Shown here: positions 2,636 to 63,113 of the stretch, one piece after another
How the letters are laid out: each line of letters opens with the position of its first letter
How positions within the stretch are numbered: position 1 is the first letter of the stretch
DNA from: an uncultured Actinomycetota bacterium
GTDB lineage: Bacteria > Actinomycetota > Actinomycetes > Actinomycetales > Dermatophilaceae
DNA length: 64,000 nt
Direction of reading: 5' to 3'
NCBI GenBank assembly: GCA_963695205.1
Contig: CAVOGI010000002.1
Location: 236,670-300,669 of the forward strand
Translations under genes and position numbers: made by a program
The notes under the pieces: model-generated
The model's database searches: none
What the model was told of the DNA's origin: nothing
What the model saw: the letters and a program-made list of their open reading frames with translations, nothing else

Positions 2636-3944
2636 ATGCGCATCCTCATGATCGGCGCCGGTGGCGTCGGTGACGCCGCCGCCCGGATCGCCGTCGAGCG
2701 CGACTTCTTCGAGCTGCTCGGTCGTCGCCGACTACGACCTCGGCGGGCCGAGGCGACGGTCGCCGCGCGCGACGGCCCGGCGGGCGGGGGAGGACCGCCT
2801 CGTCGCCGCCCGGGTCGACGCCTCCGACGAGGCGGCCGTGGCCGCCCTCGCCGTGAGCACGCGGTCGACCCACGTGTTCAACGCCGTCGACCCGCGGTTC
2901 GTCATGCCGATCTTCCGCGGTGCCCTGGCGGCCGGGGCGGGCTACCTCGACATGGCGATGAGCCTGTCGCAGCGCCACCCCGAGCGAGCCGTACGCCCAG
3001 GCGCACGTCAAGCTCGGCGACGAGCAGCTGGCGATGGCAGCGGAGTGGGAGGCGGCCGGCCAGCTGGCCTTGCTGGGCATGGGGGTCGAGCCCGGGCTGT
3101 CCGACGTGTTCGCCCGGTATGCCGCCGACCACCTGTTCTCGCACATCGACGAGCTCGGCACCCGCGACGGTGCCAACCTCGCGGTCCGCGACGCGGACGG
3201 CAACGAGACCTTCGCCCCCGGGTTCTCGATGTGGACGATCATCGAGGAGTGCCTCAACCCGCCGGTGGTGTGGGAGCGGGCGCGGGCCGACGCGGCCGGT
3301 GGTGACGTCGAAGCGGGCTTCTTCACGCTGCCAGCCGTTCAGCGAGCCGGAGGTGTTCGACTTCCCCGAGGGCATCGGCCCGGTCGAGTGCGTCCACGTC
3401 GAGCACGAGGAGGTGCTCCTCATGCCGCGCTGGGTCGACGCCGACCGGGTCACCTTCAAGTACGGCCTCGGCGAGGAGCTCATCACCATCCTGCGGACCC
3501 TGCGGCACGCTCGGGCTGGACCGCACCGACCCGGTGACCGTCAAGGGAGTGGAGGTGTCGCCGCGCGACGTCGTGGCCGCGGTGCTGCCCGGACCCGGCG
3601 ACGATCGGGCCCGCTGATGACGGGCAAGACCTGCGCGGGGCTGCTGGGTCACCGGCACGGGCAAGGACGGTCAGCCGCGGCGCATCTACCTCTACCACGT
3701 GTCCGACAACGAGGACACGATGCGCGAGTACGGCGCCCAGTGCGTCGTCTGGCAGACGGCGGTGAACCCGTGGTCGCGCTCGAGCTCCTCGCCACCGGCG
3801 TGTGGAGCGGCGGCGGCGTGCTCGGGCCCGAGGCCTTCGACGCCGTGCCGTTCCTCGATCTGCTCGCGGCACCGCAGCCGGCCGGCTACGGCTCGCCGTG
3901 GGGGATGGAGGACCGCAGGCCGGCTGGCTCCCGCCGCGGTCTAG
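2636..3944 (+). CDS. Saccharopine dehydrogenase-family NAD(P)-dependent oxidoreductase, frameshifted; end approximate
   Basis: N-terminal Rossmann MRILMIGAGGVG, YLDMA, GVEPGLS, VEHEEV, GVLGPEAFD; SD gaagga upstream. Confidence 0.8.
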
Positions 3945-3953
3945 GATCGGCGC

Positions 3954-5078
3954 ATGACGCGCTACGGGCAGCCAGTACGGTCCGGACTTCACCTTCCTCG
4001 GCGTGGACCGCTGCGACCTCGACGACCAGAGCACGTACGCCGACGCCGACGTCGTGATCCTCGGCGCGCCGTTCGACGGCGGCACCTCGCACCGCCCCGG
4101 CACGCGGTTCGGCCCGCAGGCGATCCGGATGACCGACTACCTGCCGCACGACGGCTCGCGGCCGTCCCTGGCGCTGCGCACCGACGGCCTCGCCGACCTG
4201 CGGGTCGTCGACGCCGGTGACGTCGAGATGTACTCCGGTGACATCGAGGTGGCGCTGCCCGCGCTCGAGGCCGCCGTGGAGAAGGTCGCCCGCGCCGGCG
4301 CCATCCCCGTCGTCCTCGGCGGCGACCACTCGATCGCCTTCCCCGACGCCAAGGGTGTGGCCAACGTGCTCGGCCACGGCCGGGTCTCGATGATCCACTT
4401 CGACGCGCACGCCGACACCGGCGACATCGAGTTCGGCTCGCTGTGGGGTCACGGGCAGCCGATGCGCCGGCTCATCGAGTCGGGCGCCCTGCGCGGCGAC
4501 CGCTTCCTCCAGGTCGGGCTGCGCGGCTACTGGCCGCCGCCGGAGACGCTCGACTGGATGGCCGAGCAGCAGATGCGGTCGTTCGAGATGACCGAGATCG
4601 TCCACCGCGGACTGGAGGAGTGCCTCACCGAGGCGTTCGCCATCGCGACCGACGAGTGCGACGGGGTCTTCCTCTCCGTCGACATCGACGTCTGCGACCC
4701 CGGCCACGCGCCCGGGCACCGGCACGCCCGAGCCCGGCGGGCTGACGGCCCGCGAGCTGCTCGACTCCGTGCGACGGATCTGCCTCGAGCTGCCGGTCGT
4801 CGGCGTCGACGTCGTCGAGGTCAGCCCGCCCTACGACCACGCCGACATCACCGCCGCCCTGGCGAACCGCGTCGTCCTCGAGGCGCTCTCGGCGATCGCC
4901 CGGCGGCGGCAGGACGCCCGTGACGGCACCCGGTGGGACCCGGCCCAGCCGCTGCTCGCGGGTCGCGCCGGCGCCATCCCGCAGGGCCACATCCCTCGCA
5001 CCACCACACGCACGAGACCCACACCCACGAGCACCCACGACCACACGAGACCCAGATCCCAGCGGAGGCAACACCTGA
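3954..5078 (+). CDS. Agmatinase/guanidinobutyrase-like ureohydrolase, frameshifted, His-rich C-terminal tail
   Basis: GTRFGPQAIR, GGDHSI, DAHAD, SVDIDVCDP, EVSPPYD metal-binding ureohydrolase motifs. Confidence 0.88.
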
Positions 5079-6545
5079 TGGCCAGCACCCAGAAGTCCCT
5101 CGTCGAGTCCGTGCCCAAGGGCCTGCTCATCGGCGGCACGTGGCGTGACGGCAGTCGACGGCGCGACCCTCGCCGTCGAGGACCCGTCCAGCGGCACCAC
5201 CTTCGCGCACGTCGCCGACGCGACCGTCGCCGACGGCACGGCCGCCCTCGACGCAGCCGTCGCGGCGCAGGCCGGCTGGGCAGCGACGCCCGCCGCGCGA
5301 CCGGGGCGAGATCCTGCGCGCGGCCTTCGAGCGGATCACCGAGCGCGCCGAGGACTTCGCCACGCTGATGACGCTCGAGATGGGCAAGACCGCTCGCCGA
5401 GTCCCGCGGCGAGGTGACCTACGGCGCCGAGTTCTTCCGCTGGTTCTCCGAGGAGGCGGTGCGGATCCACGGCCGCTGGTCGACCGCGCCCAACGGCGCC
5501 ACCCGGCTGCTGACCATGAAGAAGCCGGTCGGCCCGACGCTGATGATCACGCCGTGGAACTTCCCGCTGGCGATGGGCACCCGCAAGATCGGTCCGGCGA
5601 TCGCCGCGGGCTGCACGATGGTCGTCAAGCCCGCGAGCCAGACGCCGCTGACGATGCTCGCCCTGGCCGAGCTGCTGCGCGAGTGCGGGCTGCCCGACGG
5701 TGTCCTCAACGTGGTCACCACCTCGCGGACCGGCGACGTCATGGAGCCGCTCATCCGGGACCCGCGGCTGCGCAAGCTGACCTTCACCGGCTCGACCGAC
5801 GTCGGTCGCCGCCTGGTCGAGCAGTCGGCCGAGCAGCTGCTGCGGGTCTCGATGGAGCTCGGCGGCAACGCGCCCTTCCTCGTCTTCGACGACGCCGACC
5901 TCGACCGGGCCGTCGACGGCGCCATGCTCGCCAAGATGCGCAACATCGGCGAGGCGTGCACCGCGGCCAACCGGTTCTTCGTCCACGAGAGCGTCGCCGA
6001 GGAGTTCGGCGGCGCGAGTTCGCCAAGCGGATGGCGGCGCTGACCCTCGGCAAGGGCACCAAGAAGGGCGTCGACGTCGGCCCGCTGATCGACGCGAAGG
6101 CCCGCGACGGCGTGGCCGCGCTCGTCGAGGACGCCCGCTGCCCAGGGCGGCACGGTGGTCACCGGCGGCACCGCGGCGCCCGGCCGTGGCTACTTCTTCG
6201 AGCCCACGGTGATCACCGACGTGCCCGCAGGACGCCCGGGTCATGCGCGAGGAGATCTTCGGGCCGGTGGCGCCGATCGCGACGTTCCGCACCGAGGCGG
6301 AGGCCATCGACGCGGCCAACAACACCGAGTACGGCCTGGCGTCCTACGTCTTCACGGACGACCTCGGCCGCGTGATCCGGGTCAGCGAGGCGCTGGAGTA
6401 CGGGATGATCGGGATCAACCAGGGGATCATCTCCAACCCCGCAGCGCCGTTCGGCGGCGTCAAGGCGTCGGGCTTCGGACGCGAGGGTGGTTTCGAGGGC
6501 ATCGAGGAGTACCTCGAGACGACGTATGTCGGAATCGCCCCCTGA
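5078..6545 (+). CDS. gabD: NAD(P)-dependent succinate-semialdehyde dehydrogenase, frameshifted
   Basis: [48 protein letters not shown]. Confidence 0.85.
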
Positions 6546-6561
6546 CCCGCGCCAACGCAAG

Positions 6562-6592
6562 GCCTCCGGAACTGACAGACGGTTCCGGAGGC
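6562..6592 (+). terminator. Stem-loop downstream of gabD
   Basis: gcctccggaac / gttccggaggc 11-bp inverted repeat 17 nt after the stop codon; no U-tract. Confidence 0.5.
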
Positions 6593-6695
6593 ATCAGCAG
6601 GCGACGGGAGCACCGCGACGGGTCGCCGTCCGGGTCGTGGGCGATGCTGTCCGAACCGCCCACCAACGCGGGCTGATCGCGGTTCAATCGCCGCC

Positions 6696-7765
6696 ATGAC
6701 CACGGTCGAGTCAGCATCGGCGCCGGCACCATTCGCGCAGGGAGTGCCGAGCGGCCGCAGCGCGCCGCGGTTGCGCTCCCTGACCGAGGTGCTGGTCGAG
6801 ACCGACGAGAAGTTGCGAGCGGGCACCGCGGCAGCCGCGCGGGTCTGGCCGACGGGCTTCGACAGCCTCGACGTCGCCCTGACCGGCGGTTTCCGCTCGG
6901 GTGAGCTGATCCTGCTCGGCGGGCCCCAGGGCCTGGGCAAGACGGCGATGGCGCTGCAGATGCTGCGCAACACCGTCACCGCCAACCGGACGGCCATGCT
7001 GTTCTCCTACGAGCACGACGCCCACGGCGTCCTCGAGCGGCTCGTCGCCATCGAGGCCGGCGCCATCGCCGGCACCGACGCGATCGGCCTGACCAAGATC
7101 CGGCAGGCGGTTCGAGGCCCGCCACAGCCGCGCCACCTCGATGGAGGAGCGGTTCGCCAGCGCCAGCGGTGGTCCCGAGGCGGTCGCGCGCCATCGAGGC
7201 GTACGGCGAACGCCTGCACGTGCACACGTCCAGTGGCCTGCACACCACCCTCGAGGAGATCCGCCGCACCATCGACGGAGGTCGACCGGCGAGACGGCCA
7301 GGGCCCGCTGGTCCTCGTCGACTACCTCCAGAAGGTGCCCGTCCGGCGACGTCTCCGGCGGCGAGGAGGAGCGCGTGCCGCGGTCGTCGAACGCCTCAAG
7401 GACATGGCTCTCGAGTTCCAGGTGCCGGTGCTGGCCATCGCGGCGGCGGACAAGGACAGTCTCGCGGCGGGCAAACGGATGCGGGTCAGCGACCTGCGGG
7501 GCTCGTCGGCCCTCGCCTACGAGGCCGACGTGATGCTCATCCTCAACGACAAGTACGACATCGTGGCCAAGCACCACCTCGTCTACCACCTCGAGCAACG
7601 CCGAGCGGTTCCGCCAGTGGGTCGTCATGTCGATCGAGAAGAACCGCAACGGTGTCGACCACGTCTCGCTCGAGTTCCAGGAAGCGGTTCGAGCAGGGAC
7701 GGTTCGAGCCGGAGGGGCGGGTCGTCGAGGAGCAGCTGGTCGAGGACCGCGTCTTCCGCGACTGA
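6696..7765 (+). CDS. DnaB-like helicase C-terminal-domain-only protein (RecA/SF4 ATPase), frameshifted
   Basis: PTGFDSLD..LTGG, Walker A GPQGLGKT, FSYE, VDYLQ, SDLRGSS...EADV, IEKNRNG. Confidence 0.8.
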
Positions 7766-7807
7766 CGGGCTCGCCAGCCGCACACGCGGGGCTGCGACAA
7801 TGCAGGA

Positions 7808-9058
7808 GTGACCTCACCGCGCACCGTCGCCATCCTCGGCTCCACCGGGTCCATCGGCACCCAGGCGCTCGACGTCGTCGCCCGCAACCCCGACCGCTTC
7901 CGCGTCACCGGCCCTGTCCGCGGGGTCCAACCTCGACCTCGTCGCGGAGCAGGCCGTCGCCTTCGAGGTGGACCTCGTCGCGGTCGCCACCGGGACCTCC
8001 GAGCGGGTCGCCGAGGCGATCGGTGCGTATGCCGCCCGCGCCGGCCGCGCGGCATACCGGCCCCAGATCGTGGTCGGGGACGACGCGGCGGTGACCGCCG
8101 CTGGGTCCGGCGCGGACGTCGTGCTCAACGGCATCACCGGTTCGATCGGTCTCCGGCCCACTCTGGCGGCGCTGGCCGAGGGCTCGGTGCTGGCACTGGC
8201 CAACAAGGAGTCGCTCATCGTCGGCGGACCCCTGGTGAAGGCCGCTGCGCGACCCGGCCAGATCGTCCCGGTGGACTCCGAGCACTCCGCCATCGCGCAG
8301 AGCCTGCGCGGAGGACGCGCCGAGGAGGTCCGCCGACTCGTCGTCACCGCCAGCGGAGGACCGTTCCGGGGCCGGTCCAGGGAATCCCTGCGCGACGTCA
8401 CCCCCGATCAGGCGCTCGCCCACCCGAACTTCTCGATGGGCAGGGTCATCACGACCAACTCGGCGACCCTGGTCAACAAGGGGCTGGAGGTGATCGAGGC
8501 GCACCTGCTCTTCGACATCCCCTTCGACCGGATCGACGTCGTCGTCCACCCGCAGCAGATGATCCACTCGATGGTGGAGTTCGTCGACGGCTCGACGATC
8601 GCGCAGGCGGGTCCGCCGCGGATGCTCGTGCCGATCGCTCTCGGGCTGTCGTGGCCGGAGCGCCTCGCCGACGTCGACGTGCCGGTGCGACTGGACCCGC
8701 GCACAGTCGTGGGAGTTCGAGCCGCTGGACGACGAGGCGTTCCCCGCCGTGCGGCTGGCCCGGCAGGTGGGGGAGGCGTCCGGCACCTACCCCGCGGTCT
8801 ACAACGCAGCCAACGAGGTGGCGGTCGACGCGTTCCACGACGGTCGGATCGGGTTCCTCGACATCGTCGACACGATCGACAGGGTGGTCGCACGACCACG
8901 CGACCACCGGTGGCGAGGGGATCGAATCAGCGACACTGTCCGTTGAGGACGTGTTGCGTGCCGACTCGTGGGCACGCGACCGGGCCCGCACCGTGCTGGG
9001 GCTGGCCGATGGACGACCGACCGAACGACTTTCCGACGCCGAGGGGGCGCTCCGCTGA
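7808..9058 (+). CDS. dxr: 1-deoxy-D-xylulose 5-phosphate reductoisomerase, frameshifted
   Basis: [50 protein letters not shown]. Confidence 0.95.
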
Positions 9059-10425
9059 TGACCGTGCTGTTGTTCGTGCTCGGGGTGCTCTTCGTGGTGC
9101 TCGGGGTCGGTCTGTCCATCGGGTTGCACGAGATCGGCCACCTCGTCCCCGCCAAGAAGTTCGGGGTCAAGGTGACCCAGTACATGGTGGGTTTCGGACC
9201 GACCCTGTGGTCGCGCAAGCGCGGCGAGACCGAGTACGGCATGAAGGCGATCCCGCTCGGTGGCTACATCCGGATGATCGGCATGTTCCCGCCGCGGCCC
9301 GGTGACAAGCCGGGGACCCTGCGGGTGTCGAGCACGGGACGGTTCTCCCAGCTGGCCGACGAGGCCCGCCAGCTCAGCCTCGAAGAGGTCAAGCCCGGCG
9401 ACGAGGACCGCGTGTTCTACAAGCTCCCCGTGCACCAGAAGGTCGTCGTCATGCTGGGCGGCCCGATGATGAACTTCGTCATCGCCGTGGTGCTGCTCAC
9501 CGGGGTGCTCACGACGTATGGCGTCGCGACGCTCCAGGACGGCGCGCGCGTGGCGAGCGTGTCCGAGTGCGTCGTGCCCGCCAAGGACGCGGCGACCAAG
9601 ACCACCTGCGCCGCCGCCGACCCGAAGACCCCGGCCTACACCGCCGGGATCCGCCCGGGCGACGAGATCGTGTCCGTCGCCGGCCAGCCGATCAAGACCA
9701 CTGCCGACGTCGGCAAGCTCATCCGCCCCCGCGTCGGTCAGCAGGTGCCGATCGTCGTCAAGCGCGGGGGAGTCGAGCAGACCCTCACCGCCACACCGAT
9801 CCGCAACTCCGTGCAGCAGGTCGGCCCCGACGGCACCCCGCTCGTCGACGCCGACGGAAAGCCGATCGTCCAGGAGACCGGCTTCCTCGGAGTCTCCTCC
9901 GGCGCGATCATCGGCTACGAACGGCAGCCGGTCACGGCCGTCCCCGGCGTCGTGGGGGAGCAGCTGCTCGCCACGGCCGGGGTGGTCCTGAAGATCCCGC
10001 AGAAGATGGTCGGCGTGGTGCAGGCCGCCTTCGGCTCCGGCGCACGCGACCCCAACGGCCCGGTCTCCGTCGTCGGTGTCGGCCGGATGGCCGGCGAGGC
10101 GACGTCGGGCAAGATCCCGTGGATCGGGGGCCAGAACGGGATGAACCCGTTCGTCTTCCTCCTCATGCTCATGGCGTCGCTCAACCTCGCCCTCTTCGTC
10201 TTCAACCTCATCCCGCTGCTGCCCCTCGACGGCGGTCACGTCGCCGGCGCGCTCTGGGAGGGCACCAAGCGCGGCATCGCCAAGGCCCGCAACCGCCCCG
10301 ACCCCGGTCACGTCGACGTCGCCAAGGCGCTGCCCGTGGCCTACGCCGTGTCCTCGGTGCTCATCGTCATGTCGGTCCTGCTCATCTACGCCGACGTCGT
10401 GAAGCCGATCAGCCTCGGCGGCTGA
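9058..10425 (+). CDS. RIP/site-2 zinc metalloprotease with PDZ domain (Rip1/RseP family)
   Basis: [33 protein letters not shown]; canonical dxr-rip-ispG context. Confidence 0.93.
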
Positions 10426-10511
10426 GCCTGCCCGTCGCCGCCGGTCGCCGTCTCCCGCCAGCGGGGCAGCCCGGGGACGCCCTCCAAACCCCTCTGGGAG
10501 ATACTTCAGCC

Positions 10512-11672
10512 ATGACTGTTGGACTCGGTATGCCGGCCCTGCCCCCGCCCGTCCTCGCGCCCCGGCGCAAGACGCGCAAGATCAAGGTCGGCAAGGTCGA
10601 GGTCGGCGGCGACGCCCCCATCTCCGTGCAGTCGATGTGCACGACGCCGACGACGGACATCAACGCGACGCTGCAGCAGATCGCCGAGCTCACCGCCTCC
10701 GGCTGCGACATCGTGCGGGTGGCCTGCCCGAGCCAGGACGACGCCGACGCGCTCCCGGCGATCGCCCGGAAGTCGCAGATCCCCGTGATCGCCGACATCC
10801 ACTTCCAGCCCAAGTACGTCTTCGCGGCCATCGATGCCGGCTGTGCGGCAGTGCGCGTCAACCCGGGCAACATCCGCAAGTTCGACGACCAGGTCAAGCA
10901 GATCGCGGCCGCGGCCAAGGACGCCGGCGTCTCGATCCGCATCGGCGTCAACGCCGGCTCGCTCGACCCGCGCCTGCTCGAGAAGTACGGCAAGGCCACC
11001 GCCGAGGCGCTCGTGGAGTCGGCCGTCTGGGAGGCGTCCCTGTTCGAGGAGCACGACTTCCACGACTTCAAGATCTCGGTGAAGCACAACGACCCGGTGG
11101 TCATGGTCAAGGCCTACGAGATGCTGTCCGAGCGGGGCGACTGGCCGCTGCACCTCGGCGTCACCGAGGCAGGCCCGGCGTTCCAGGGCACGATCAAGTC
11201 CGCGACCGCGTTCGGCGCGCTGCTGTCCAAGGGCATCGGCGACACGATCCGCGTCTCCCTGTCGGCGCCTCCGGTCGAGGAGGTCAAGGTCGGCAACCAG
11301 ATCCTGCAGTCGCTCAACCTCAAGCCCCGCAAGCTCGAGATCGTGTCGTGCCCCTCGTGCGGTCGCGCCCAGGTCGACGTCTACAAGCTCGCCGACGAGG
11401 TCACCGCCGGGCTCGAGGGCATGACCGTGCCGCTGCGCGTCGCCGTCATGGGGTGCGTCGTCAACGGTCCCGGCGAGGCTCGCGAGGCGGACCTCGGTGT
11501 GGCGTCCGGCAACGGCAAGGGGCAGATCTTCGTCAAGGGCGAGGTCGTCAAGACGGTGCCCGAGAGCCAGATCGTCGAGACCCTCATCGAAGAGGCCATG
11601 CGCATCGCCGAGGAGATGGGCGAGCCCATCGACGAGGCGAGCGCGGGCGCGCCGTCCGTCACCGTCGGCTGA
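10512..11672 (+). CDS. ispG: (E)-4-hydroxy-3-methylbut-2-enyl-diphosphate synthase
   Basis: [43 protein letters not shown]. Confidence 0.97.
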
Positions 11673-11777
11673 GGCGTCACCTCCCCGGTCGCCGCTGCTG
11701 TCCAGAGGGCGTCCACATGGTGGGCGAAGCGCGACCCCGGTTATCACCCCTAGTTATGGGTGGGATAACTTTCTGAT

Positions 11778-11843
11778 GTGTTCATGACGAGCGGCCACGA
11801 GGCCGCCGCACCGGCCCCGGCCGTTCGACGGGTCTGTCCCTAG
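11778..11843 (+). CDS. Putative leaderless leader peptide (MF)MTSGHEAAAPAPAVRRVCP
   Basis: -10-like TAACTT 11766-11771, 6 nt spacer, GTG 11778 in frame with ATG 11784, TAG 11841-11843, immediately followed by a 10-bp perfect stem. Confidence 0.45.
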   Translation: MFMTSGHEAAAPAPAVRRVCP

Positions 11844-11960
11844 CCGCACGCGTATGGCGCCCTCGGGCAGCCCGCGTGCGGCACGCCGTACCCGTCCGAT
11901 CTGACACGCACCATCCCGCCGGGCTCCTGCCTGCCCGCCGCCGGGGTCGCCGTCGACCCC
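11843..11960 (+). promoter_or_regulatory. Structured leader / possible attenuator of amino-acid ABC operon
   Basis: gccgcacgcg (11843-52) / cgcgtgcggc (11873-82); gacgggt (11827-33) / acccgtc (11890-96); ggggtcg / cgacccc (11943-60). Confidence 0.45.
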
Positions 11961-11985
11961 TCCCGACCGAAGGAACCGATCACCC

Positions 11986-12819
11986 ATGTCCGTGCGCCGT
12001 CGCGCCCTCGTCCTTGCCACCTCCGCCGCGCTCGCCCTGTCGCTCGCCGCGTGCGGCGGCGGCAGCAGCTCTGCCGCGTCCAACCCCTACAAGCTCCAGC
12101 AGCCGGGCACCCTGCGGGTCGGCACGCTGACCGACGCCCCGCCGAACGTCTTCCTCAAGGACGGCAAGTTCACCGGCTTCGACAACGACCTGCTCACCGC
12201 GGTCGCCGCCAAGCTCGGCCTCAAGGTCGAGTTCGTGGGCACGGAGTTCAGCTCGCTGCTCGCCCAGGTGAAGACCGGCAAGTACGACCTCGGCTCGTCC
12301 TCGATCAGCATCACCGAGGCCCGCAAGAAGACGGTGGCCTTCTCCAACAAGTACGACTTCGGCTTCCTGGGCCTCGACGTCCCGAAGGGCTCGCCCATCA
12401 CGTCGTTCGCCCAGCTGTCGGGCAAGCGCGTGGTCGTCGTGCAGGGCACCGTCCAGGACGACTTCGCCAGCCGCGAGAACCTCAACCCGGTGCGGGTGCC
12501 CGACTACAACGCCGCCCTCAACCAGCTCAAGGCCGGGACGGCCGACGCCTGGATCACGCCCGCCGAGATCGGCGAGAAGACCGCGGCCGACTCGAGCGGC
12601 AAGGTGCTTGCCGTGGCCAAGCAGCTCGACCCCGGCGGCACGGCCTTCGCGGTCAGCCAGGGCAACACCGCCCTGCGCGCCGGGGTGAACAAGGCGCTCG
12701 ACGAGGTCATCAAGGACGGCACCTGGGCGAAGCTGCAGAAGCAGTACTACCCGAGCCGTGAGATCCCCGCCGACTTCAAGCCCGGCAGCGGCTCGGTCAC
12801 CATCGGCGCCGCGAAGTAA
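11986..12819 (+). CDS. Polar amino-acid ABC transporter substrate-binding lipoprotein (SBP family 3)
   Basis: Lipobox LAAC, FTGFDNDL, ITEARKK, KDGTWAKL. Confidence 0.92.
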   Translation: MSVRRRALVLATSAALALSLAACGGGSSSAASNPYKLQQPGTLRVGTLTDAPPNVFLKDGKFTGFDNDLLTAVAAKLGLKVEFVGTEFSSLLAQVKTGKYDLGSSSISITEARKKTVAFSNKYDFGFLGLDVPKGSPITSFAQLSGKRVVVVQGTVQDDFASRENLNPVRVPDYNAALNQLKAGTADAWITPAEIGEKTAADSSGKVLAVAKQLDPGGTAFAVSQGNTALRAGVNKALDEVIKDGTWAKLQKQYYPSREIPADFKPGSGSVTIGAAK

Positions 12820-12850
12820 CCACCCACCACCACCGAGAGGAGGGCCAGGG

Positions 12851-13639
12851 ATGGATGTCCTGAGCACCCTGTGGCAGACGTTCTTCGACGTCGACGCCAT
12901 GCGCACCGCCCTGCCCGAGCTGCTTCGGGTCGGGTTGCCCAACACCCTGCTCCTGGCCCTCACCTCGGCGGTGATCGGCACCGTCGTCGGCATGGTCCTG
13001 GCGATCGCCGGCCTCTCCGGCAGCCGTTGGCTGCGGTGGCCGGCGCGCGTCTACACCGACGTCTTCCGCGGCCTCCCGGCGGCGGTGACGATCCTGCTCA
13101 TCGGGGTCGGGCTGTCGCCGTTCGGGCTGCAGATCTGGGGACCCAACCCCTACCCGCTGGGCATCCTCGCCCTGTCGCTCATCGCGAGCGCCTACATCGG
13201 CGAGATCTTCCGGTCGGGCATCCAGAGCGTCGAGGCCGGACAGCTCGAAGCCGCTCGGGCGCTCGGCTTCTCACGGCCCAGCGGCATGCGCCTGGTCGTC
13301 ATCCCGCAGGGGATCCGGCGGGTGCTGCCGGCCCTGGTCAACCAGTTCATCGCTCTGATCAAGGAGTCCTCGCTCGTCTACTTCCTCGGGCTGCTGGCGA
13401 GCCAGCGTGACCTGTTCCGGATCGGGCAGGACGCAGCGGCCAACACCGGCAACGAGTCGGCGCTGCTCCTCGCCGGGCTGTTCTACCTGGTCATCACCGT
13501 GCCGCTGACCCACGTGGTCAACGCCATCGACCGCAGGCTCCGGGACGGTCGCCGCGCCGACGGTGCAGAGGGCGCCGACGACGAGCCCACCGATCCAGCT
13601 GCGCCATCCCTCGCCCTCGCCCAGGAGGCCCACCGATGA
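12851..13639 (+). CDS. Polar amino-acid ABC transporter permease (HisM/GlnP family)
   Basis: FRGLP, SAYIGEIFRSGIQSV..GQLEAARALG, IKESSL. Confidence 0.93.
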   Translation: MDVLSTLWQTFFDVDAMRTALPELLRVGLPNTLLLALTSAVIGTVVGMVLAIAGLSGSRWLRWPARVYTDVFRGLPAAVTILLIGVGLSPFGLQIWGPNPYPLGILALSLIASAYIGEIFRSGIQSVEAGQLEAARALGFSRPSGMRLVVIPQGIRRVLPALVNQFIALIKESSLVYFLGLLASQRDLFRIGQDAAANTGNESALLLAGLFYLVITVPLTHVVNAIDRRLRDGRRADGAEGADDEPTDPAAPSLALAQEAHR

Positions 13640-15990: not shown

Positions 15991-15994
15991 TGAG

Positions 15995-52595: not shown

Positions 52596-52801
52596 CTCTG
52601 AACCCTCCGCTTCTCTGGAAGGGGCCGCTTCGTGCTGAAGTGGTCCGCCTCCCGACGCTACGCCGGGCCCACGGAGGCGTCACCGGACATACCGGGCCGT
52701 GCGCCCAGCGGTTCGACGACCGGTGGAGGGCGCTGGGTCTGGCTGCGACTGGAGGCGGGGACGGGCGGTAGCGACGGGCGGAGTGGACGGGTGGGGCAGG
52801 C

Positions 52802-54169
52802 TCACGCGAAGAGGGCGCCGACCACCTCGCGGAAGACCTCGGTGTGCCGGTCGACGTCGGCGCGCGAGGTCTCCGGGCACATGAGTGCCATGTTGTGGAA
52901 CGGCGTCATCAGCACGCCGCGGTTGCACAGGGCGAGGTGCAGGTAGGCGTCGAGCTCGTCGTCGGCCGCGGCCGCGGACTCCTCGCCGTTGCGGGGTGCC
53001 GGACGGGTGAAGCGGTACTCGGCGCGGGCGCCCAGCTGGGCGACCGACCACGGCACGTCGAGCTCGTCGAAGGTCGCCTGCACCCCCGCCGTGAACGCGG
53101 TGGCCAGCTCGACCATGTGGTCGAACGCCTCCTGCGTCAGCACCTCACCCAGCGTCGCGCGCATCGCGGCGGTCGACAGCGCGTTGCCGGCCAGGGTGCC
53201 CCCGACACCGCCGACGTCGACGATGTCGGCGTCCCCGGCGTCGGTATGGCGTGTCACGGCGGCCGCCACCTCCCGGCTGATCCCGTAGGCACCACAGGGG
53301 ATCCCGCCGCCGATGGACTTGCCGATGACGAAGATGTCGGGCTCCAGGCCCCACTCACGGGTCGCGCCACCCCACCCGGCAGAGAAGGTGTGGGTCTCGT
53401 CGATGAGCAGGAGCGCACCGTGCTCGGTCGCGAGCTCGCGCACCCGCTCGAGGAAGCCGTCCTCGGGCAGGACGATCCCGATGTTCGTCAGGGCGGGTTC
53501 GGTGAGGATGACCGCGACGTCACCGTGGGCGAGGGCTGCCTCGACGGACTCGATGTCGTTCCACGTCGCGACCCGGGTGGTCAGGTCGAGGTCCACGGGA
53601 GGGGCGACGTTGCCGGGGCGGCTCTGGGCCTTGCCCTCGGGGCCGGGCAGGGCGAAGGCCTCGTCGACCGAGCCGTGGTAGCAGTAGGCGAAGACCAGCA
53701 CCTTGGGCTTGCCCGTCGCGAGGCGGGCCAGTCGGATGGCCCACCGGTTCGCGTCGGTGGCCGACAGGGTGAAGCTCCACAGCGGCATACCGAAGCGTCG
53801 CTCCAGCTCGGCACCCACCCACTGGGCGTCGGCGGTCGGCAGCATCGTCGTCATGCCGCCGAGCTCACCCGCGCGCTGCTGCACCGCCTTGACGGTGGGT
53901 GCGGGGGAGTGGCCGGCCATCGCTCCGGTGTCGCCGAGGGCGAAGTCGACGTAGGTGTGGCCGTCGACGTCGGTCACCCGGTTGCCCGTCGCGTGGTCGA
54001 GGTAGAGGGGGAACCCGCCCGTCCACATGTTCATCCAGGTCATCGGCACCCGGCCGAAGAGGTTGTCCGCCTGCTCGAAGAGGGCACGGCTCTGCGGGTG
54101 GTTCGTCGTGTATGCCGCCTGCTCGTCCGCGAGGAGGGAGGCCAGTCGGGAGCGGTCCAGGGTTGCCAT
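52802..54169 (-). CDS. Class-III PLP aminotransferase (glutamate-1-semialdehyde aminomutase-like)
   Basis: DVDGHTYVDF, SATDANR, YHG, EPALTN, LIDETHT, GKSIGGG, GGTLAGN. Confidence 0.88.
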   Translation of the reverse strand: MATLDRSRLASLLADEQAAYTTNHPQSRALFEQADNLFGRVPMTWMNMWTGGFPLYLDHATGNRVTDVDGHTYVDFALGDTGAMAGHSPAPTVKAVQQRAGELGGMTTMLPTADAQWVGAELERRFGMPLWSFTLSATDANRWAIRLARLATGKPKVLVFAYCYHGSVDEAFALPGPEGKAQSRPGNVAPPVDLDLTTRVATWNDIESVEAALAHGDVAVILTEPALTNIGIVLPEDGFLERVRELATEHGALLLIDETHTFSAGWGGATREWGLEPDIFVIGKSIGGGIPCGAYGISREVAAAVTRHTDAGDADIVDVGGVGGTLAGNALSTAAMRATLGEVLTQEAFDHMVELATAFTAGVQATFDELDVPWSVAQLGARAEYRFTRPAPRNGEESAAAADDELDAYLHLALCNRGVLMTPFHNMALMCPETSRADVDRHTEVFREVVGALFA

Positions 54170-54254
54170 GGTCCAACGCTAGAGGTCCGTTCGGAGGTGC
54201 GGCAGGGGAGTGCGGATTCCGTAGGTGGTGGGCCTCGCCCTAGGCTTGCCGACC

Positions 54255-55007
54255 ATGGCTCGACAGCGCGTACCCGAAGGCCCGCCCCCCGCCCCTGCGG
54301 TGATGAAGCTGAGGATCAGGTACGCCAAGCGTGGCCGTCTGAGGTTCTCCTCGACCCGTGACTTCCAGCGGGCCCTGGAGCGGGCGCTGCGCCGGGCCGG
54401 GGTGCCGATGGCGTTCTCCGCCGGGTTCCACCCGCACCCCAAGGTCAGCTACGCGAACGCGGCACCGACGGGCACCGCCAGCGAGGCCGAGTACTTCGAG
54501 ATCTCGGTGACCGAGCGGGTCGACACCGAGTCGCTGCGGACCGCCCTGGACGAGGCGCTGCCCGACGGGCTCGACGTCCTCGAGGTGGTCGAGGCCGCGC
54601 CGGGTTCGCTCGCCGACCGGCTGCAGGCCAGTGACTGGGTCATCGAGTTCCGCGGCGTCCCGCTCGAGGACGTCAGGGCCGCCGCCGACGAGCTGCTGGC
54701 CCGTGACCGCGTCGAGGTCAGCCGCACCTTCAAGACGGGCCCGCGGACCTTCGACGTGAGATCCGCCGTCGTGTCGTTGGACGTCAGCGCCTCTGAGGAG
54801 GCCGACTGTGCGATACTGCGGGTGGTCGTACGGCACACCACACCGGCCGTACGTCCCGACGACGTCCTGACCGCGCTGCGAGCAGTAACGGAGCTGGCAC
54901 CACCGACACCACCCCTGGTGACCCGACTGGCGCAAGGCCCCCTGCACTCCGCAACCGCTGGGGTGGCTGATCCACTGGCTGCCGACCAGAACGACGCCGG
55001 CGCCTGA
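54255..55007 (+). CDS. TIGR03936-family radical SAM-linked protein (DUF2344)
   Basis: [42 protein letters not shown]. Confidence 0.88.
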   Translation: MARQRVPEGPPPAPAVMKLRIRYAKRGRLRFSSTRDFQRALERALRRAGVPMAFSAGFHPHPKVSYANAAPTGTASEAEYFEISVTERVDTESLRTALDEALPDGLDVLEVVEAAPGSLADRLQASDWVIEFRGVPLEDVRAAADELLARDRVEVSRTFKTGPRTFDVRSAVVSLDVSASEEADCAILRVVVRHTTPAVRPDDVLTALRAVTELAPPTPPLVTRLAQGPLHSATAGVADPLAADQNDAGA

Positions 55008-55182
55008 CCCGGTGCCGCGCGACCTGCGCGAGCCTCGTCGGACGTAAGCCAAACGACTTCCGTGTCGACAGCACCCGTTGCCGACACGACTGCACGCACC
55101 GCGCACCACGTGGCTGATCGGAAGGCCCTCCTGGGACCTTCGGGTGTGGCCCTCGCCTCGTGGGTGACGGAAGGGCGCCGAG

Positions 55183-58100
55183 ATGGCCTCCACGGAAGAC
55201 CAGTTCCCCACCACCGAAGGCACCGACGGCTCGGGCAACGCCCCGGCTGGCGAGACCGCAGCCCAGGGCACTGACGCGCAGGCGTCTGAGGGCGTCGCCG
55301 CCAAGGCGCCGGCCCGCAAGCGAGCCCCACGCCGTGCCACGAAGAAGGCCTCTGCTCCCGCTCCGGTGGACGAGCACGCCGCCTCCGCGGTCGAGGCGGC
55401 CCCGATCGAGCCCGCGGCCATCGAGGTCGTGAGCGTCGGGGCCGGCGACAGCAGCGACGCGACCGGCATCCCTGCTGCTGCCACCGGCGAGGACCCCACC
55501 GGGGCTGCGGCCCCGGCCAAGAAGGCCGCGAAGAAGGCTGCCGTCAAGAAGACCGCCAAGAAGGCCGCCACCAAGCGCACCGCCAAGAAGGCCACGACAG
55601 CCCCCACCGAGACGGGTGCCGCCGTCCTCGACGAGGGCGCGATGGACCTGCCCACCGATACCGGCCTGACGGCGACGGCCCCGGCCACCGAGGCCTCCAC
55701 CGAGTCCTCCACCAGCTCCTCCCTGGCCCCGGCGGATCCGGTCCTCCCGGCCGTATCCGAGGACGCGAGCGCCGAGGACACCGACGAGGAGGCCGAGGCG
55801 GCCGCAGCTGCCGAGGCCGCTGCCGCAGCCGCGGTCCCCAGCTTCGGGCTGCTCTTCCAGGCCCCGGACCCGGCCAAGGCGGCCCCGCGCCGTCGCCGGG
55901 CCAGCAGTGCCGCGGGCGCCCCGGCTCCTGCCGCGCCGGCGCAGCAGACCCCGGTCGCCGAGCCCGACCCGGCGCAGTCGAGCGACCGGGCCGAGGACGC
56001 CACGACCGACGGCGTCCAGGACGCGACCGACGACGCCGCGCAGGCAGACCAGCCGACTCCCTCGCGGCGCAGCCGTGGGCGTGGCCGTGGCCGGGGCTCA
56101 CGCGGTGCTGCCACCGAGGCGACCGAGACCGCTCGCGACGACGAGCAGTCCGACGACCAGGACAGCGCCTCGACCGACACCGACACCGACGCGGGTGACG
56201 ACGAGTCGTCGTCCGAGGGTGGTCGTCGTCGCCGTCGCCGTGGCGGCAAGGGCCGGGGCCGCGGCCGTGGCCCGGTCGACGCCGACAGCACCGACTCCTC
56301 CGACTCCGACACCTCGGACGACGACACCGACGAGCCGTCGTCCACCGGACCGGACACCGACGACGACCAGGGTGACTCCGAGAGCACCTCGAGCCGTCGC
56401 CGCCGTCGTCGCCGCCGCAGCGGGTCCTCGGCCGACAGCGACGACCCGCCCGGCACGGTGACCAAGGTCCGCGAGGCCCGCCGCCAGAACGACGAGCCGC
56501 AGAGCGTCAAGGGCTCGACCCGGCTCGAGGCCAAGAAGCAGCGTCGTCGCGAGGGCCGTGAGGCCGGCCGTCGCCGCACGATCATCACCGAGGCGGAGTT
56601 CCTGGCCCGCCGCGAGAGCGTCGAGCGGGTCATGGTGGTCCGCGAGCGCGAGGGCCGCACCCAGATCGGTGTCCTCGAGGACGACGTCCTCGTCGAGCAC
56701 TACGTCTCCCGCGAGACCAACGTGTCGATGGCCGGCAACATCTACCTCGGCCGCGTGCAGAACGTGCTGCCCTCGATGGAGGCCGCCTTCGTCGACATCG
56801 GCAAGGGACGCAACGCCGTTCTGTACGCGGGTGAGGTCAACTGGGATGCCGCGGGCCTGGACAACAACGCGCCCAAGCGCATCGAGAACGCGCTCAAGTC
56901 GGGTGACTCCGTGCTCGTGCAGGTCACCAAGGACCCGATCGGCCACAAGGGTGCCCGCCTGACCAGCCAGATCTCGCTGCCGGGCCGCTACCTGGTCTAC
57001 GTGCCCGAGGGCAGCATGACGGGCATCTCCCGCAAGCTCCCGGACACCGAGCGTGGCCGCCTCAAGGGCATCCTCAAGGAGGTCGTGCCGGACCGTGCGG
57101 GTGTCATCGTGCGCACCGCTGCCGAGGGGGCGAGCGAGGAGGAGCTGCGCGCCGACGTCGAGCGGCTGACCCAGACCTGGGAGAAGATCAAGGCCAAGGC
57201 CGACTCCAAGTCCGGCGGCAAGGGCAAGGGCGCCGCCCCGGTCCTCGTCCACGGGGAGCCCGACCTCACCGTCCGCGTCATCCGCGACGTCTTCAACGAG
57301 GACTTCACGTCCTTGGTGGTGGCCGGTGACCAGGCGTACGGCGAGGTCGGCGACTACCTCGGCGACGTCGCCCCCGACCTGGCCGAGCGACTGCACAAGT
57401 GGACCTCCGAGGAGGACCTGTTCACCCACTACCGGGTGGACGAGCAGATCGCCAAGGCCATGGACCGCAAGGTCTGGCTGCCCTCCGGTGGCTCCCTGGT
57501 CATCGACCGCACCGAGGCGATGACGGTCGTCGACGTCAACACCGGCAAGTTCGTCGGCTCGGGGGGCAACCTCGAGGAGACGGTCACCAAGAACAACATC
57601 GAGGCGGCCGAGGAGATCGTGCGACAGCTCCGGCTGCGCGACATCGGCGGCATCATCGTCATCGACTTCATCGACATGGTCCTGGAGAGCAACCGCGACC
57701 TCGTGGTGCGGCGCCTCCTCGAGTGCCTGGGTCGGGACCGCACCAAGCACCAGGTCGCCGAGGTCACCTCGCTCGGCCTGGTCCAGATGACGCGCAAGCG
57801 CGTGGGCTCCGGCCTCATCGAGGTGTTCTCCGAGAACTGCGAGCACTGCGGCGGTCGCGGGATCATCGTGCACGCCGACCCGGTCGACAAGTCGTCCGGT
57901 GACCACGGTGGCTCGTCCTCCGGTGGTCCGGCCCAGCGCAGCGGCTCGGCCGGCGCAGGCGGCGGCAGCACGCGCAGCCGTCGAGGCGGGCGTTCCGGTG
58001 ACGGCGAGGGCGTGCGCAGCGGACAGTCGCAGGGCGGTCAGGGTTCCGCGGGCGGGCAGGGCACGGAGGCCGGGACCCCGGTGCACTCCGGCCCCACCCC

Positions 58101-58536
58101 GGCCCAGATCGCCGCTGCCGCCCACGCCGCCGCGCTGAAGTCGGCGGGGGAGCACCATGACGAGGACGCCCTGCTGGCCGTGCCGGCGCAGGACGAGCCC
58201 GTGGTCGAGGTGCGCGAGGCCAACAACCAGGACGCCGGCGCCGCGATCGAGACCGCGACGCCTGAGGTGACCGAGACCCAGACCGCCGAGGTCGAGACCG
58301 CCGAGGCCGCGCTGCAGGAGGCTGCGCCCGTCGTGCAGGAGGCACCTGATGCCGCGCCGGCACAGGCACCTGCTGCCGCCGCGGAGCCGACGACCGCGCC
58401 GGCCGCCGAGGTGGCCGAACCGGCTGCCGCAGCCGCCCCCAAGCGTCGTCGCCGCGGCCGGGTCGTCGCCCCGGCAGGACCGCCGCGGCCGGTCGGTGAC
58501 GAGGCTCCTGCCGGCGCAGCAGCGTCCGACTCCTGA
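55183..58536 (+). CDS. rne: Ribonuclease E/G with long disordered N- and C-terminal arms
   Basis: [75 protein letters not shown]. Confidence 0.95.
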
Positions 58537-58549
58537 TCGGGACCGGTCA

Positions 58550-58579
58550 GCCCTGCCGAGCCGGTTTGGTCGGCAGGGC
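58550..58579 (+). terminator. Hairpin after rne
   Basis: gccctgccga / tcggcagggc 10-bp stem. Confidence 0.5.
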
Positions 58580-58714
58580 AACCACCCGGTATTCTCAGGC
58601 CTTGGTGCGCCCACCGCTCTGATGTCCGTGTCTCGACCCAGGTCGAGCTCGGGTAGCTATCGGACGGTCCAGACAGAGAGCGCGTGCCTCCCGAAGTACG
58701 AAAGAGAGTTCCAC

Positions 58715-59023
58715 GTGTACGCGATTGTTCGCGCTGGTGGTCGCCAGGAGAAGGTTTCCGTCGGCGACGTCCTCATCATCGACAAGGTCAAGGGCAAGGC
58801 CGGCGACAGCATCGACCTGACCCCGCTGCTCCTCGTTGACGGCTCGACCGTGACCAGCGACGCCGCCAAGCTCGCCAAGGTCACCGTCACGGCCGAGGTC
58901 GTGAAGCCCGCCAAGGGCCCGAAGATCACGATCATGAAGTTCAAGAACAAGACGGGCTACCGCAAGCGTCAGGGCCACCGTCAGCACCTGACCCAGGTCA
59001 AGATCACCTCGATCGACGCCTGA
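58715..59023 (+). CDS. rplU: 50S ribosomal protein L21
   Basis: [30 protein letters not shown]. Confidence 0.97.
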
Positions 59024-59074
59024 GTCGGCGACCCTTTTCGGATCCCAGAGACTTAGCAGAAGGTAGGCACTGAC

Positions 59075-59344
59075 ATGGCACACAAGAAGGGTGCGTCCTC
59101 GACCCGCAACGGTCGCGACTCCAACTCCCAGCGACTCGGCGTGAAGCGCTTCGGCGGCCAGCTCGTCAACGCGGGCGAGATCATCGTCCGCCAGCGCGGC
59201 ACGCACTTCCACCCCGGTGAGGGCGTCGGCCGTGGCAGGGACGACACGCTGTTCGCGCTCGTCGCCGGCAACGTGGAGTTCGGCACGAAGCGTCGCCGCA
59301 AGGTCGTCAACATCGTCCCGCTCGAGACCGCGGACGCCAGCTGA
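59075..59344 (+). CDS. rpmA: 50S ribosomal protein L27
   Basis: [26 protein letters not shown]. Confidence 0.98.
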
Positions 59345-59386
59345 CTTTCGGTATGCCGCGTGGCCCGGCCACGCTCCATACCTCCT

Positions 59387-61054: not shown

Positions 61055-62177
61055 GCGTGGCCGACCGCCGGCGCGACGTGGCTCGCGCCCGCCGGCTCGT
61101 CGTCAAGGTCGGCTCGTCGTCGCTCACCGCGCGAGCGGCGGGCCGCTCGACGAGGCCCGGCTGGTCGGCGCTCGTCGACGCCCTCGCCGCGCGCCGGCTG
61201 GCCGGGCACCAGGTCGTGCTCGTCTCCTCGGGGGCCATCGCGGCCGGCATCGGTCCGCTCGGCCTGGCCGCCGCCCGCGCGACCTCGCGACCCAGCAGGC
61301 CGCGGCGAGCGTGGGGCAGGGAGCGCTCGTCGCGGCATACCAGCGGCGTTCGGGGCCCACGGGCTCACGGTCGGACAGGTGCTGCTCACCGCCGACGACG
61401 TGACCCGCCGCTCGCACTACACCAACGCCCGCCGCACCCTCGACCGGCTGCTCGAGCTCGGCATCGTGCCCGATCGTCAACGAGAACGACACGGTGGCGA
61501 CCCACGAGATCCGGTTCGGCGACAACGACCGCCTCGCCGCGCTCGTCGCCCACCTCGTCCACGCCGACGCGCTGGTGCTGCTCACCGACGTCGACGCGCT
61601 GTACGACGGCCCGCCCGAGTCGCGCGGGCAGCGCGCGGGTGCCCGTCGGTCGTGGGCGACGACGGCCTCGACGACGTCGCGCATCGGTGGCACCGGGTCC
61701 AGCGTCGGCAGCGGCGGGATGGTGACCAAGGTCGAGGCGGCGTCGATCGCGAACGCCGCCGGCATCACCACGGTGCTCACGAGCGCCGACCGCATCAGCG
61801 CGGCGCTGGCCGGTGACGACGTCGGCACGGTGTTCGTCCCGACCGGTTCGCGGCGCACGTCCCGCAAGCTGTGGCTGGCGCACGCGACCACCCCGCGTGG
61901 CCGGCTCCTGCTCGACGACGGTGCCGTGCGGGCGGTCATCGAGCGGCGCACCTCGTTGCTGCCGGCGGGGATCACCGCGGTCGAGGGCACCTTCTCCGAC
62001 GGCGACCCCGTCGACCTGTGCGCCGCCGAGGGCACGGTCATCGCCCGGGGACTGGTCAACTACACCTCGGCCGAGCTGCCGGGCATGCTCGGCCGGTCGA
62101 CCCGCGACCTGGCCAAGGAGCTCGGCCCGGAGTACGAGCGCGAGGTCGTCCACCGCGACGACCTCGTGCTGCTCTGA
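61051..62177 (+). CDS. proB: Glutamate 5-kinase, frameshifted
   Basis: [42 protein letters not shown] domain ..HRDDLVL. Confidence 0.95.
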
Positions 62178-62182
62178 GGCCG

Positions 62183-63058
62183 TCAGCTCGGCATCAGCGC
62201 CGGGCCGCTCCTCGAACCGCTCGTCGGGGTGGGCAGATCGCTCCTGGGCCGCGATGATCTGGATCTCGCGCTCGCCGGAACGGGCGGTCTCCTCCAGGAC
62301 GCCCCAGACCGAGGACGCGGTGCGGGCCAGGGCGATGCGCCGGAACGCCGGTCTCGAGCAGGTGGGCGAGGAACAGCGCGGCCGTGAGGTCGCCGGCACC
62401 GTTGACCGTGATCGGGAAGCAGCGGGGTACTGACCAGCCAGGCCCCGTGCCGGTCGACGGCCAGCATCTCCAGGGTGTCCTGCCCGGTGCCGTCGTGGAC
62501 CACGGAGGTGACGAGGACGGTCGCCGGACCCATGGCCCGCGCAGGTCGCGACTGCCGCCAGCGATCTCCGTCGAGTGGTGCGCGCTCGCGCGCCGGTGAG
62601 GAAGTCGAGCTCGAAGTGGTTGGGGGTGACGATGTCGGCCGGGGGATGACGTGGTCGCGCAGAACTCCGGGATGCCGGGTCGCACGAAGAAGCCGCGCCC
62701 GGTGTCGCCCATCACCGGGTCGCAGCAGTACACCGCGTCGGGGTTGGCTGCCTTCACCCGGGCCACCGCGTCGAGGACCACCGTCGCCGACCTCCTCGGC
62801 TCCCTGGTACCCGACAGCACCGCGTCGCAGCGTCCCGGGACGCCCGCGCTCCTCGATGCCGGTCAGCACCTCGCGCAGGTCCTCGGCTGCGAGCAGCGGA
62901 CCCCGCCACTGGCCGTACCCGGTGTGGTTGGAGAAGTGCACCGTGACGACGGGCCAGACCTCGATGCCGAGTCGCTGCAGCGGGAAGACCGCGGCGCTGT
63001 TGCCGACGTGCCCGTAGGCGACGGAGGACTGGATCGACAGGATGCTCACCCCGGCCAT
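62183..63058 (-). CDS. pdxY: Pyridoxal kinase, frameshifted
   Basis: [51 protein letters not shown]. Confidence 0.92.
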
Positions 63059-63113
63059 TCAACCAGCGGGACAAGCGTCCGCATGCCGGGCACCGCGGCA
63101 TACCCTTGACGGC

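Follow-up and report, generated by a model that had tools for sequence, protein, structure and literature searches.

An over-represented octamer in Dermatophilaceae genomes with same-strand exclusion over about 1 kb

What keeps one short, asymmetric DNA word at high density in a bacterial genome? The question is raised by a stretch of 64,000 nucleotides (G000:C2:236670-300669), referred to in its whole length as the window, from an uncultured Actinomycetota bacterium which, on IF2 and neighbouring sequences, is placed beside Pedococcus (91-92% identity) within the Dermatophilaceae. A pattern search of this 64-kb window finds 22 copies of the 8-mer GTATGCCG, 11 per strand, whereas dinucleotide shuffles of the window average 0.76 copies and do not exceed 3. 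An earlier reading of the letters alone (the sequence-only reading) had counted the copies by eye, and exact matching returned the same 22 at the same positions. Here we describe how the word is distributed, at what level it is constrained and what kind of machinery might read it.

Abundance of the octamer and the level at which it is constrained

The assembly to which the window belongs (G000; 2.55 Mb, 10 contigs, 71% GC) contains 929 copies of GTATGCCG, 453 on the plus strand and 476 on the minus strand, versus 39 expected under an order-2 Markov model, an excess of about 25-fold; the reversed word, taken as a control, occurs 63 times. By the ratio of observed to expected copies GTATGCCG is the second most over-represented 8-mer in G000, and the only word ranking higher, TATGCCGC, overlaps it and is contained in its one-base extension. 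Under a maximal-order Markov model the z of GTATGCCG is only modest, since the 7-mers within it are inflated to the same degree. About three quarters of the copies fall inside called genes, in frame, and the called coding sequences hold 683 copies, compared with 71 +/- 8 in 100 within-gene synonymous-codon shuffles (z = 73). The excess therefore survives a control at the codon level, rather than vanishing as the sequence-only reading had allowed that it might, and the hyper-abundance of GTATGCCG is confirmed.

The word is sharply bounded. In G000, G stands before 96% of TATGCC occurrences and after 95% of them, so positions 0 and 7 are near-obligate G; within the window a C comes before each GGCATAC, as had been noticed from the letters, and a G after each GTATGCC. 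Positions 5 and 6 are tolerant, as seen in the variants GTATGGCG (321 copies), GTATGCGG (122), GTATGCAG (77), GTATGACG (72) and GTATGTCG (70), each at 3-9 times expectation, and the relaxed form in G000 is GTATG-N-N-G, with CC preferred at N-N. Most GTATG hits had been said to fit GTATGNNG, and 41 of the 44 GTATG/CATAC hits in the window do so. The word is followed on its 3' side by C or T (87%) and then by G or C, and the farther flanks show codon periodicity only in the flank logo. As the flanks are nearly empty of information past +8/+9, GTATGCCG is not part of a longer repeat. We therefore give next to no credence to the idea that the copies represent a mobile or repeated element, such as a repetitive extragenic palindrome (REP), a miniature inverted-repeat transposable element (MITE) or an Ssn-type hairpin, or a codon or compositional artefact. 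Although some copies do lie in intergenic hairpins, this explanation is refuted by the flank logo, which is flat past +9, and by the codon shuffle, which removes 90% of copies; it also sits poorly with the in-frame position of the genic majority. Moreover, Ssn-related motifs (SRMs) are hairpin repeats of ~30 nt (PMC11893778).

Genic copies are phase-locked, with 380 of the 683 reading xxG-TAT-GCC-Gxx in the sense orientation and 192 reading xCG-GCA-TAC in the antisense orientation. In G000, TAT makes up 75% of tyrosine codons in the context G_TAY_GCC_G, compared with 7% overall; its share is 65-78% with GCG or GCA, 23-27% with GGC, GAC or GTC, and ~2% elsewhere. Similarly, GCA accounts for 53% of alanine codons in CG_GCN_TAC and for 1-3% in other contexts. 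The Tyr-Ala-G context also raises the share of G at position -1 from ~27% to 65%, and in it GCC is favoured over GCG. Since both transcriptional orientations respond, the signal does not lie in the mRNA, and the proposal that the constraint is on DNA and not on protein is borne out by the override of TAT and GCA choice in both orientations.

Codon-resolved alignments of the nusA-infB-rbfA-truB neighbourhood (80 named relatives; loci of 12-22 kb) extended these observations to other lineages, which are either rich or poor in the word, as described below. Two conserved Tyr-Ala sites carry the word in 9 of 17 and 8 of 13 word-rich lineages and in none of 43 and none of 9 word-poor lineages, the latter reading CTACGCCG, GTACGCGG and similar sequences. 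By comparison with word-poor lineages, an amino-acid change accompanies the word in 15 of 18 evaluable columns at a 30% threshold (~13 when judged by eye), as in EYTA to TYAA (six lineages), LHAA to LYAA, AFY to AAY, and RLR to RMP in IF2. Word-poor orthologous sequences depart from GTATGCCG at all eight positions. The pressure thus acts at the DNA level on the whole word, and against codon preference.

These data bear directly on whether the word could be a by-product of mutation or repair, arising either from deamination of 5-methylcytosine at a GTACG hotspot or from biased repair of the kind proposed for the highly iterated palindrome HIP1 or for very-short-patch (VSP) repair. Such an origin would be in keeping with the finding that the change at position 3 is synonymous in the two dominant frames (TAC to TAT, GCG to GCA) and with the depletion in G000 of the one-base neighbours GTATGCTG and ATATGCCG. 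However, G at -1 and the preference for GCC are also driven, so a single C-to-T hotspot, which the sequence-only reading had offered as an alternative, is insufficient: positions 0, 5, 6 and 7 are driven too, relatives differ at all eight positions, often with amino-acid changes, and the precursor GTACGCCG, with 279 copies in G000, stands at 1.4 times expectation and shows no depletion. Nor could a mutational bias yield the same-strand exclusion over 1 kb that is described below. The comparison with HIP1 (GCGATCGC, cyanobacteria), another suggestion made from the letters, holds in that both are hyper-abundant, lineage-specific octamers that override codon usage, and fails in that HIP1 is palindromic and methyltransferase-linked, whereas GTATGCCG is asymmetric and tracked by neither a C5-methyltransferase nor Vsr. 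The Vsr gene is present sporadically, in 48 of 151 genomes of the family, is absent from the richest and is unlinked to GTATGCCG; and a C5-methyltransferase (PF00145) found no match in three near-complete word-rich genomes (G093, G104 and G003). A mutational or repair origin is thus largely refuted, and we consider it very improbable.

The individual copies in the window are listed below with the codons in which they are read. All three frames that had been noted from the letters (TAT-GCC, GCA-TAC and ATG-CCG) occur among them, and the nine GTATGGCG copies that had been listed are all present, although the one placed near 27741 really lies at 27801.

3117..3124, plus strand: GTATGCCG copy (pattern search); no gene called there
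8027..8034, plus strand: GTATGCCG copy, 5' arm of an inverted pair (pattern search)
8050..8057, minus strand: GTATGCCG copy, 3' arm of an inverted pair (pattern search)
8017..8070, no strand: hairpin on the convergent pair 8027/8050, a weak example; stem 9, loop 13
10528..10535, plus strand: GTATGCCG copy (pattern search)
15007..15014, minus strand: GTATGCCG copy; mRNA GCG-GCA-TAC, Ala-Ala-Tyr, with the rare GCA
17474..17481, plus strand: GTATGCCG copy; GGG-TAT-GCC-GCG, with the rare TAT
21546..21553, minus strand: GTATGCCG copy; GCG-GCA-TAC
22153..22160, plus strand: GTATGCCG copy; CTG-TAT-GCC-GTG; shares its gene with 21546, in opposite orientation
24988..24995, plus strand: GTATGCCG copy; GCG-GCA-TAC in a minus-strand gene
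26152..26159, minus strand: GTATGCCG copy (pattern search)
26749..26756, minus strand: GTATGCCG copy (pattern search)
30470..30477, minus strand: GTATGCCG copy (pattern search)
34257..34264, plus strand: GTATGCCG copy; GCG-TAT-GCC-GCG
38222..38229, plus strand: GTATGCCG copy; GCG-TAT-GCC-GAC; the column has the word in 3 of 7 word-rich relatives
45709..45716, minus strand: GTATGCCG copy (pattern search)
49052..49059, minus strand: GTATGCCG copy; GGT-ATG-CCG, Gly-Met-Pro frame
49909..49916, plus strand: GTATGCCG copy; ACG-TAT-GCC-GTG; the word is shared in this column by 8 of 13 word-rich lineages and by no word-poor lineage (0 of 9)
53783..53790, minus strand: GTATGCCG copy; GGT-ATG-CCG
54110..54117, plus strand: GTATGCCG copy; GCG-GCA-TAC in a minus-strand gene
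59351..59358, plus strand: GTATGCCG copy (pattern search)
61333..61340, minus strand: GTATGCCG copy; GCG-GCA-TAC
63096..63103, minus strand: GTATGCCG copy (pattern search)
6524..59381, no strand: 19 weaker GTATGNNG variants, starting at 6524, 9516, 11852, 15432, 16732, 18933, 20472, 26858, 27801, 28278, 32033, 32128, 35586, 35643, 36980, 42991, 45414, 53244 and 59374

Orientation and spacing of the copies

Neighbouring copies in G000 alternate in strand in 57% of pairs (z = 4.2). For the GTATGNNG class (1,695 copies) the density of same-strand pairs is 0.2-0.4 of expectation below 600 bp and 0.6-0.7 at 600-1,200 bp, reaching 1.0 beyond 1.5 kb, and the density of opposite-strand pairs stays near 1.0. 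The same curve is obtained in G093, where the copies are four times denser, with recovery by ~1 kb and 65% alternation; because the curve is the same at four-fold density, its length scale looks intrinsic rather than simply set by spacing. After correction for available sites, the T-form makes up ~80% of GTAYGCCG, but drops to 49-59% when a same-strand copy lies within 750 bp, and stands at 85% near an opposite-strand copy. Weaker variants avoid same-strand GTATGCCG to the same degree, with GTATGGCG forming 28 same-strand versus 86 opposite-strand pairs (81 expected for each); the control words GTACGCCG, GCATGCCG and GTAGGCCG show no same-strand avoidance of GTATGCCG. Since the variants share the exclusion, they are probably read by the same reader. 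A rule of one copy per gene was rejected, as the exclusion vanishes beyond 1 kb within genes and persists between genes on opposite strands: it tracks distance and not the gene. These findings suggest that GTATGCCG is read in an orientation-specific manner despite its equal strand counts, because same-strand copies exclude each other, with a 3- to 5-fold depletion, within ~1 kb. In the window, copies 21546/22153 and 53783/54110 form opposite-orientation pairs within single genes, 330-610 bp apart, and illustrate the genome-wide rule that opposite orientations coexist and same orientations exclude.

On every contig of G000, plus and minus copies are interleaved independently of GC skew, and 400 kb of G093 show a strand split of 304:288. 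Interleaving together with an even split indicates that there is no replichore polarity. An apparent strand polarity in G048, G107 and G123, for which only plus-strand sites were listed, proved from their DNA to reflect the order of listing. The sequence-only reading had taken the 11:11 split in the window as an argument against polar signals such as Chi or the FtsK-orienting polar sequences (KOPS); this is sound with regard to replication polarity, but given the same-strand exclusion it does not speak against a directional reader. Long word-free gaps are not in excess in G000 (17 over 11 kb versus ~15 expected), and no local clusters of GTATGCCG that could mark a reader gene were seen.

Convergent GTATGCCG-loop-CGGCATAC pairs within 50 bp are four-fold over-represented, and 16 of the 19 convergent pairs within 60 bp are intergenic hairpins located 11-57 bp past a stop codon, with stems of 13-21 bp and without a T-run. 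These hairpins after genes carry both orientations together and probably double as terminators. The hairpin in the window (8017..8070) has a predicted energy of -28.8 kcal/mol, yet a z of only -1.0 against shuffles, and is thus no stabler than shuffled sequence.

Distribution in the family and candidates for the reader

Among 151 genomes of the family, which being related are non-independent samples, copy number is bimodal: a genome contains either 1,000-5,400 copies of GTATGCCG (maximum 5,422) or 10-100, the latter comparable to the control given by the reversed word. About half of the 73 genera are word-rich, with up to 1.5 copies per kb, and forward and reverse counts are equal in all 151 genomes. 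In a tree of five concatenated proteins, word-rich rows are confined to the Dermatophilaceae clade, and GTATGCCG is at zero in Cellulomonas, Brachybacterium, Brevibacterium and Kineococcus. Nested among the word-rich lineages are word-poor ones, namely the Phycicoccus/Janibacter group, Intrasporangium zincisolvens, a metagenome-assembled genome (MAG) sister to Terrabacter sp. Ter38, and Kineosphaera, so that the tree requires at least seven changes in word status. The simplest history that fits the tree would be one old gain followed by repeated losses, at least six of them independent and complete. A recent loss or gain of the maintaining force is what the contrast between G062 and G117 looks like, since these two genomes of one genus (g62) differ five-fold, at 294 versus 1,410 copies, and make a suitable pair in which to seek the reader.

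One-base dialects occur in certain relatives. In small samples (loci of 12-22 kb), a Phycicoccus MAG is enriched in GAATGCCG, a Flexivirga in GTATGACG and a further MAG in GTATGCGG. G093, the densest genome sampled, is strict, with CC in 592 of its 613 GTATGNNG copies, whereas G000 is relaxed (55% CC). No alternative hyper-abundant word was found in word-poor loci of 12-22 kb each, including those of Phycicoccus and Janibacter. Outside the Dermatophilaceae, the infB locus of MAG MFD09730.bin.1.8 (L077) contains CGGACGCC plus its complement 24 times in 22 kb. C runs in the Kineococcus sp. and Actinotalea sp. loci (L043 and L067) yield 130 and 35 overlapping CCCCCCCC hits, and are probably low-complexity or masked stretches of the records.

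The distribution can be set against the possibility, which the sequence-only reading had raised in part, that GTATGCCG is where a chromosome-organising or DNA-tracking protein of the SMC or translocase type binds or loads, or that it is a topoisomerase site. The even genome-wide spread without clusters and the stability of the trait within genera would suit such a protein, and the orientation-specific spacing would suit a directional motor. Nevertheless, we regard it as improbable, as an essential role is hard to square with at least six independent complete losses. Moreover, each genome, word-rich and word-poor alike, has exactly one FtsK gamma domain and thus no extra reader, and there is no origin-to-terminus polarity; a KOPS-type signal with an additional reader was rejected on the same two grounds. 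We know of no nucleoid protein that needs thousands of exact 8-mers.

A search for the reader itself covered competence, pilus, repair and recombination genes. ComEC and the Tad-type ATPase are universal in the genomes tested, and ComEA and TadE are present as well; the gene content around comEA-comEC is the same in four word-rich and six word-poor genomes. NucS, GIY-YIG and TadE were found in all five genomes tested, with GIY-YIG counts equal in word-rich and word-poor genomes. A correlation with competence genes across taxa, which had been suggested as a check, was not found, ComEC and the Tad genes occurring in word-rich and word-poor genomes alike; since these genes also occur in word-poor genera, they permit the idea of uptake and do not support it. 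PilM is present in only 4 of 74 genomes and type IVa pili are almost absent in the family, on which basis a ComP-type reader on type IVa pili was rejected.

Two genes in this survey showed irregular reading frames. A comEC homologue lies at G000:C2:331889-334300, ~31 kb past the end of the window, and matches the 917-aa ComEC of the sister genome G045 in four segments in alternating reading frames, pointing to three changes of frame in its C-terminal third. Either this competence gene is decaying or the MAG has indel errors here, and the gene coverage of 77% hints at the latter. In G093, the only match to NucS (EndoMS), at G093:C2:221945-222196, spans model positions 38-124 in an open frame of 100 aa, and the frames in four other genomes are 233-329 aa in length; the NucS mismatch-repair nuclease of G093 may thus be truncated.

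The orientation dependence of the exclusion also suggests an internal Chi-like signal, at which an end-resecting helicase-nuclease (AdnAB or another) would be switched to recombination, the word being kept by selection for the repair of two-ended breaks and not by a drive associated with transfer. Same-orientation redundancy over ~1 kb, with opposite orientations independent, is exactly what end-tracking enzymes predict. Like E. coli Chi and the Chi sites of RecBCD and AddAB in general, GTATGCCG is a short asymmetric 8-mer that is over-represented in the core genome; Chi is read in one orientation by a tracking enzyme, a logic with which the exclusion found here agrees, if indirectly. An AdnAB-like gene pair is present. 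However, this pair occurs in word-rich and word-poor genomes alike, and the word is missing from half of a family that keeps AdnAB, having been wholly lost in many genera that retain their repair genes. RecBCD-Chi itself was rejected: RecC occurs in 46 of 151 genomes, no less often in word-poor genera than in word-rich ones, is in neither complete genome of the window's genus and is unlinked to GTATGCCG. Furthermore, GTATGCCG has no leading-strand skew of any kind, whereas to our knowledge every characterised Chi has leading-strand polarity. Known Chi sites are also a poor match for an excess of 25- to 100-fold that overrides codon choice and alters amino acids, their own excess and codon cost being, as far as is known, much smaller. 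On balance we think a Chi-like role unlikely.

A candidate self-DNA tag and its relation to known signals

The reading that we favour, though tentatively, is that GTATGCCG serves as a self-tag that promotes uptake or recombination and is read one strand or one direction at a time, the link to transfer and the type of reader being what we infer from analogy. The word would be a lineage-specific self-DNA signal of the Dermatophilaceae, held dense by a force on the word itself. This force would most likely be a molecular drive such as that acting on DNA uptake sequences, in which exchanged DNA that bears the word would be taken up, or would survive and recombine, more often, and near-matches would thereby be turned into matches across the core genome. 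The reader could act on an imported single strand, or could be an enzyme that enters at a DNA end and tracks inward; another copy ~1 kb or less away in the same orientation would then add nothing and would not be maintained, and a copy in the opposite orientation would be independent. The orientation-specific exclusion suits a reader to which only one strand is visible or which moves in a single direction, as Chi readers do.

Of the known systems, the DNA uptake sequences (DUS) of the Neisseriaceae and uptake signal sequences (USS) of the Pasteurellaceae provide the closest pattern, in agreement with one of the suggestions of the sequence-only reading. The resemblance extends to the excess, the codon override, the altered proteins, the equal strands, the hairpin pairs, the dialects and the patchiness. 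Like them, GTATGCCG is a short asymmetric word with hundreds to thousands of copies, about 0.4-1.5 per kb, occurring equally on both strands without replication polarity. Within genes it keeps to preferred frames and shows one orientation more often in the reading frame; it forms inverted pairs as hairpins after genes, has one-base dialects between genera and is patchy within one family. The DUS of the Neisseriaceae comprise GCCGTCTGAA and its dialects (PMC3630211), and known uptake sequences likewise favour one orientation in the reading frame (PMC2346458). GTATGCCG differs in its Gram-positive, actinomycetotal host, in having 8 specified bases only, and in its same-strand exclusion over ~1 kb, and its uptake bias is putative. 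We know of no such exclusion for DUS or USS. With type IVa pili almost absent from the Dermatophilaceae, a pilus route would have to be of the Tad type, for which Tad-dependent transformation in Micrococcus luteus is a precedent in the phylum (PMC4322843).

A precedent also exists for a genomic repeat that is read only as single-stranded DNA on one strand. The Ssn single-strand nucleases of Neisseria read NTS/SRM repeats strand-specifically and modulate natural transformation, and the SRMs, which are intergenic and clustered around particular genes, reduce transformation (PMC11893778). In contrast to these repeats, GTATGCCG is an 8-mer, mostly genic and evenly spread, and, as noted above, GIY-YIG counts do not distinguish word-rich from word-poor genomes.

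Several observations weigh against the self-tag reading. None of the 13 gene families or neighbourhoods tested tracks GTATGCCG, and the competence and Tad genes, which word-poor genera have to the same extent, do not explain its distribution. A ComP-like surface receptor for double-stranded DNA predicts redundancy that is independent of orientation, and simple directional import from the word predicts exclusion of convergent pairs too, neither of which is seen. Apart from the convergent pairs and the same-strand exclusion, the overall spacing in G000 is near Poisson, with a coefficient of variation of 1.0. In addition, G000 is a MAG that is only 52% complete and has signs of indel errors, and its gene calls come from our own codon-score caller of open reading frames, which covers 77% of the genome.

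There is also some room for a new class of genome-wide signal that is neither an uptake sequence nor Chi. Here a family-specific machine working strand by strand, with a reach of ~1 kb, would write or maintain its own sites, having arisen once at the base of the Dermatophilaceae and been lost at least six times; we find this rather doubtful. No published description of GTATGCCG, or of uptake-type sequences in these taxa, was found in the literature.

If GTATGCCG were confirmed as a self-tag, the consequences would reach beyond the window. Sequence tags with a bias on DNA uptake or recombination have been established in no more than two families, both proteobacterial, and this would be the first for the Actinomycetota, in a family to which the main phosphorus-removing bacteria of wastewater plants belong. 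The strand-specific exclusion over 1 kb is a quantitative signature that constrains the mechanism, and DUS, USS and Chi could be examined for it. In practical terms, the word could offer a handle for the genetic manipulation of poorly tractable organisms and a marker of native versus foreign DNA, and its repeated losses within one family amount to a natural experiment from which comparative genomics could identify the reader.

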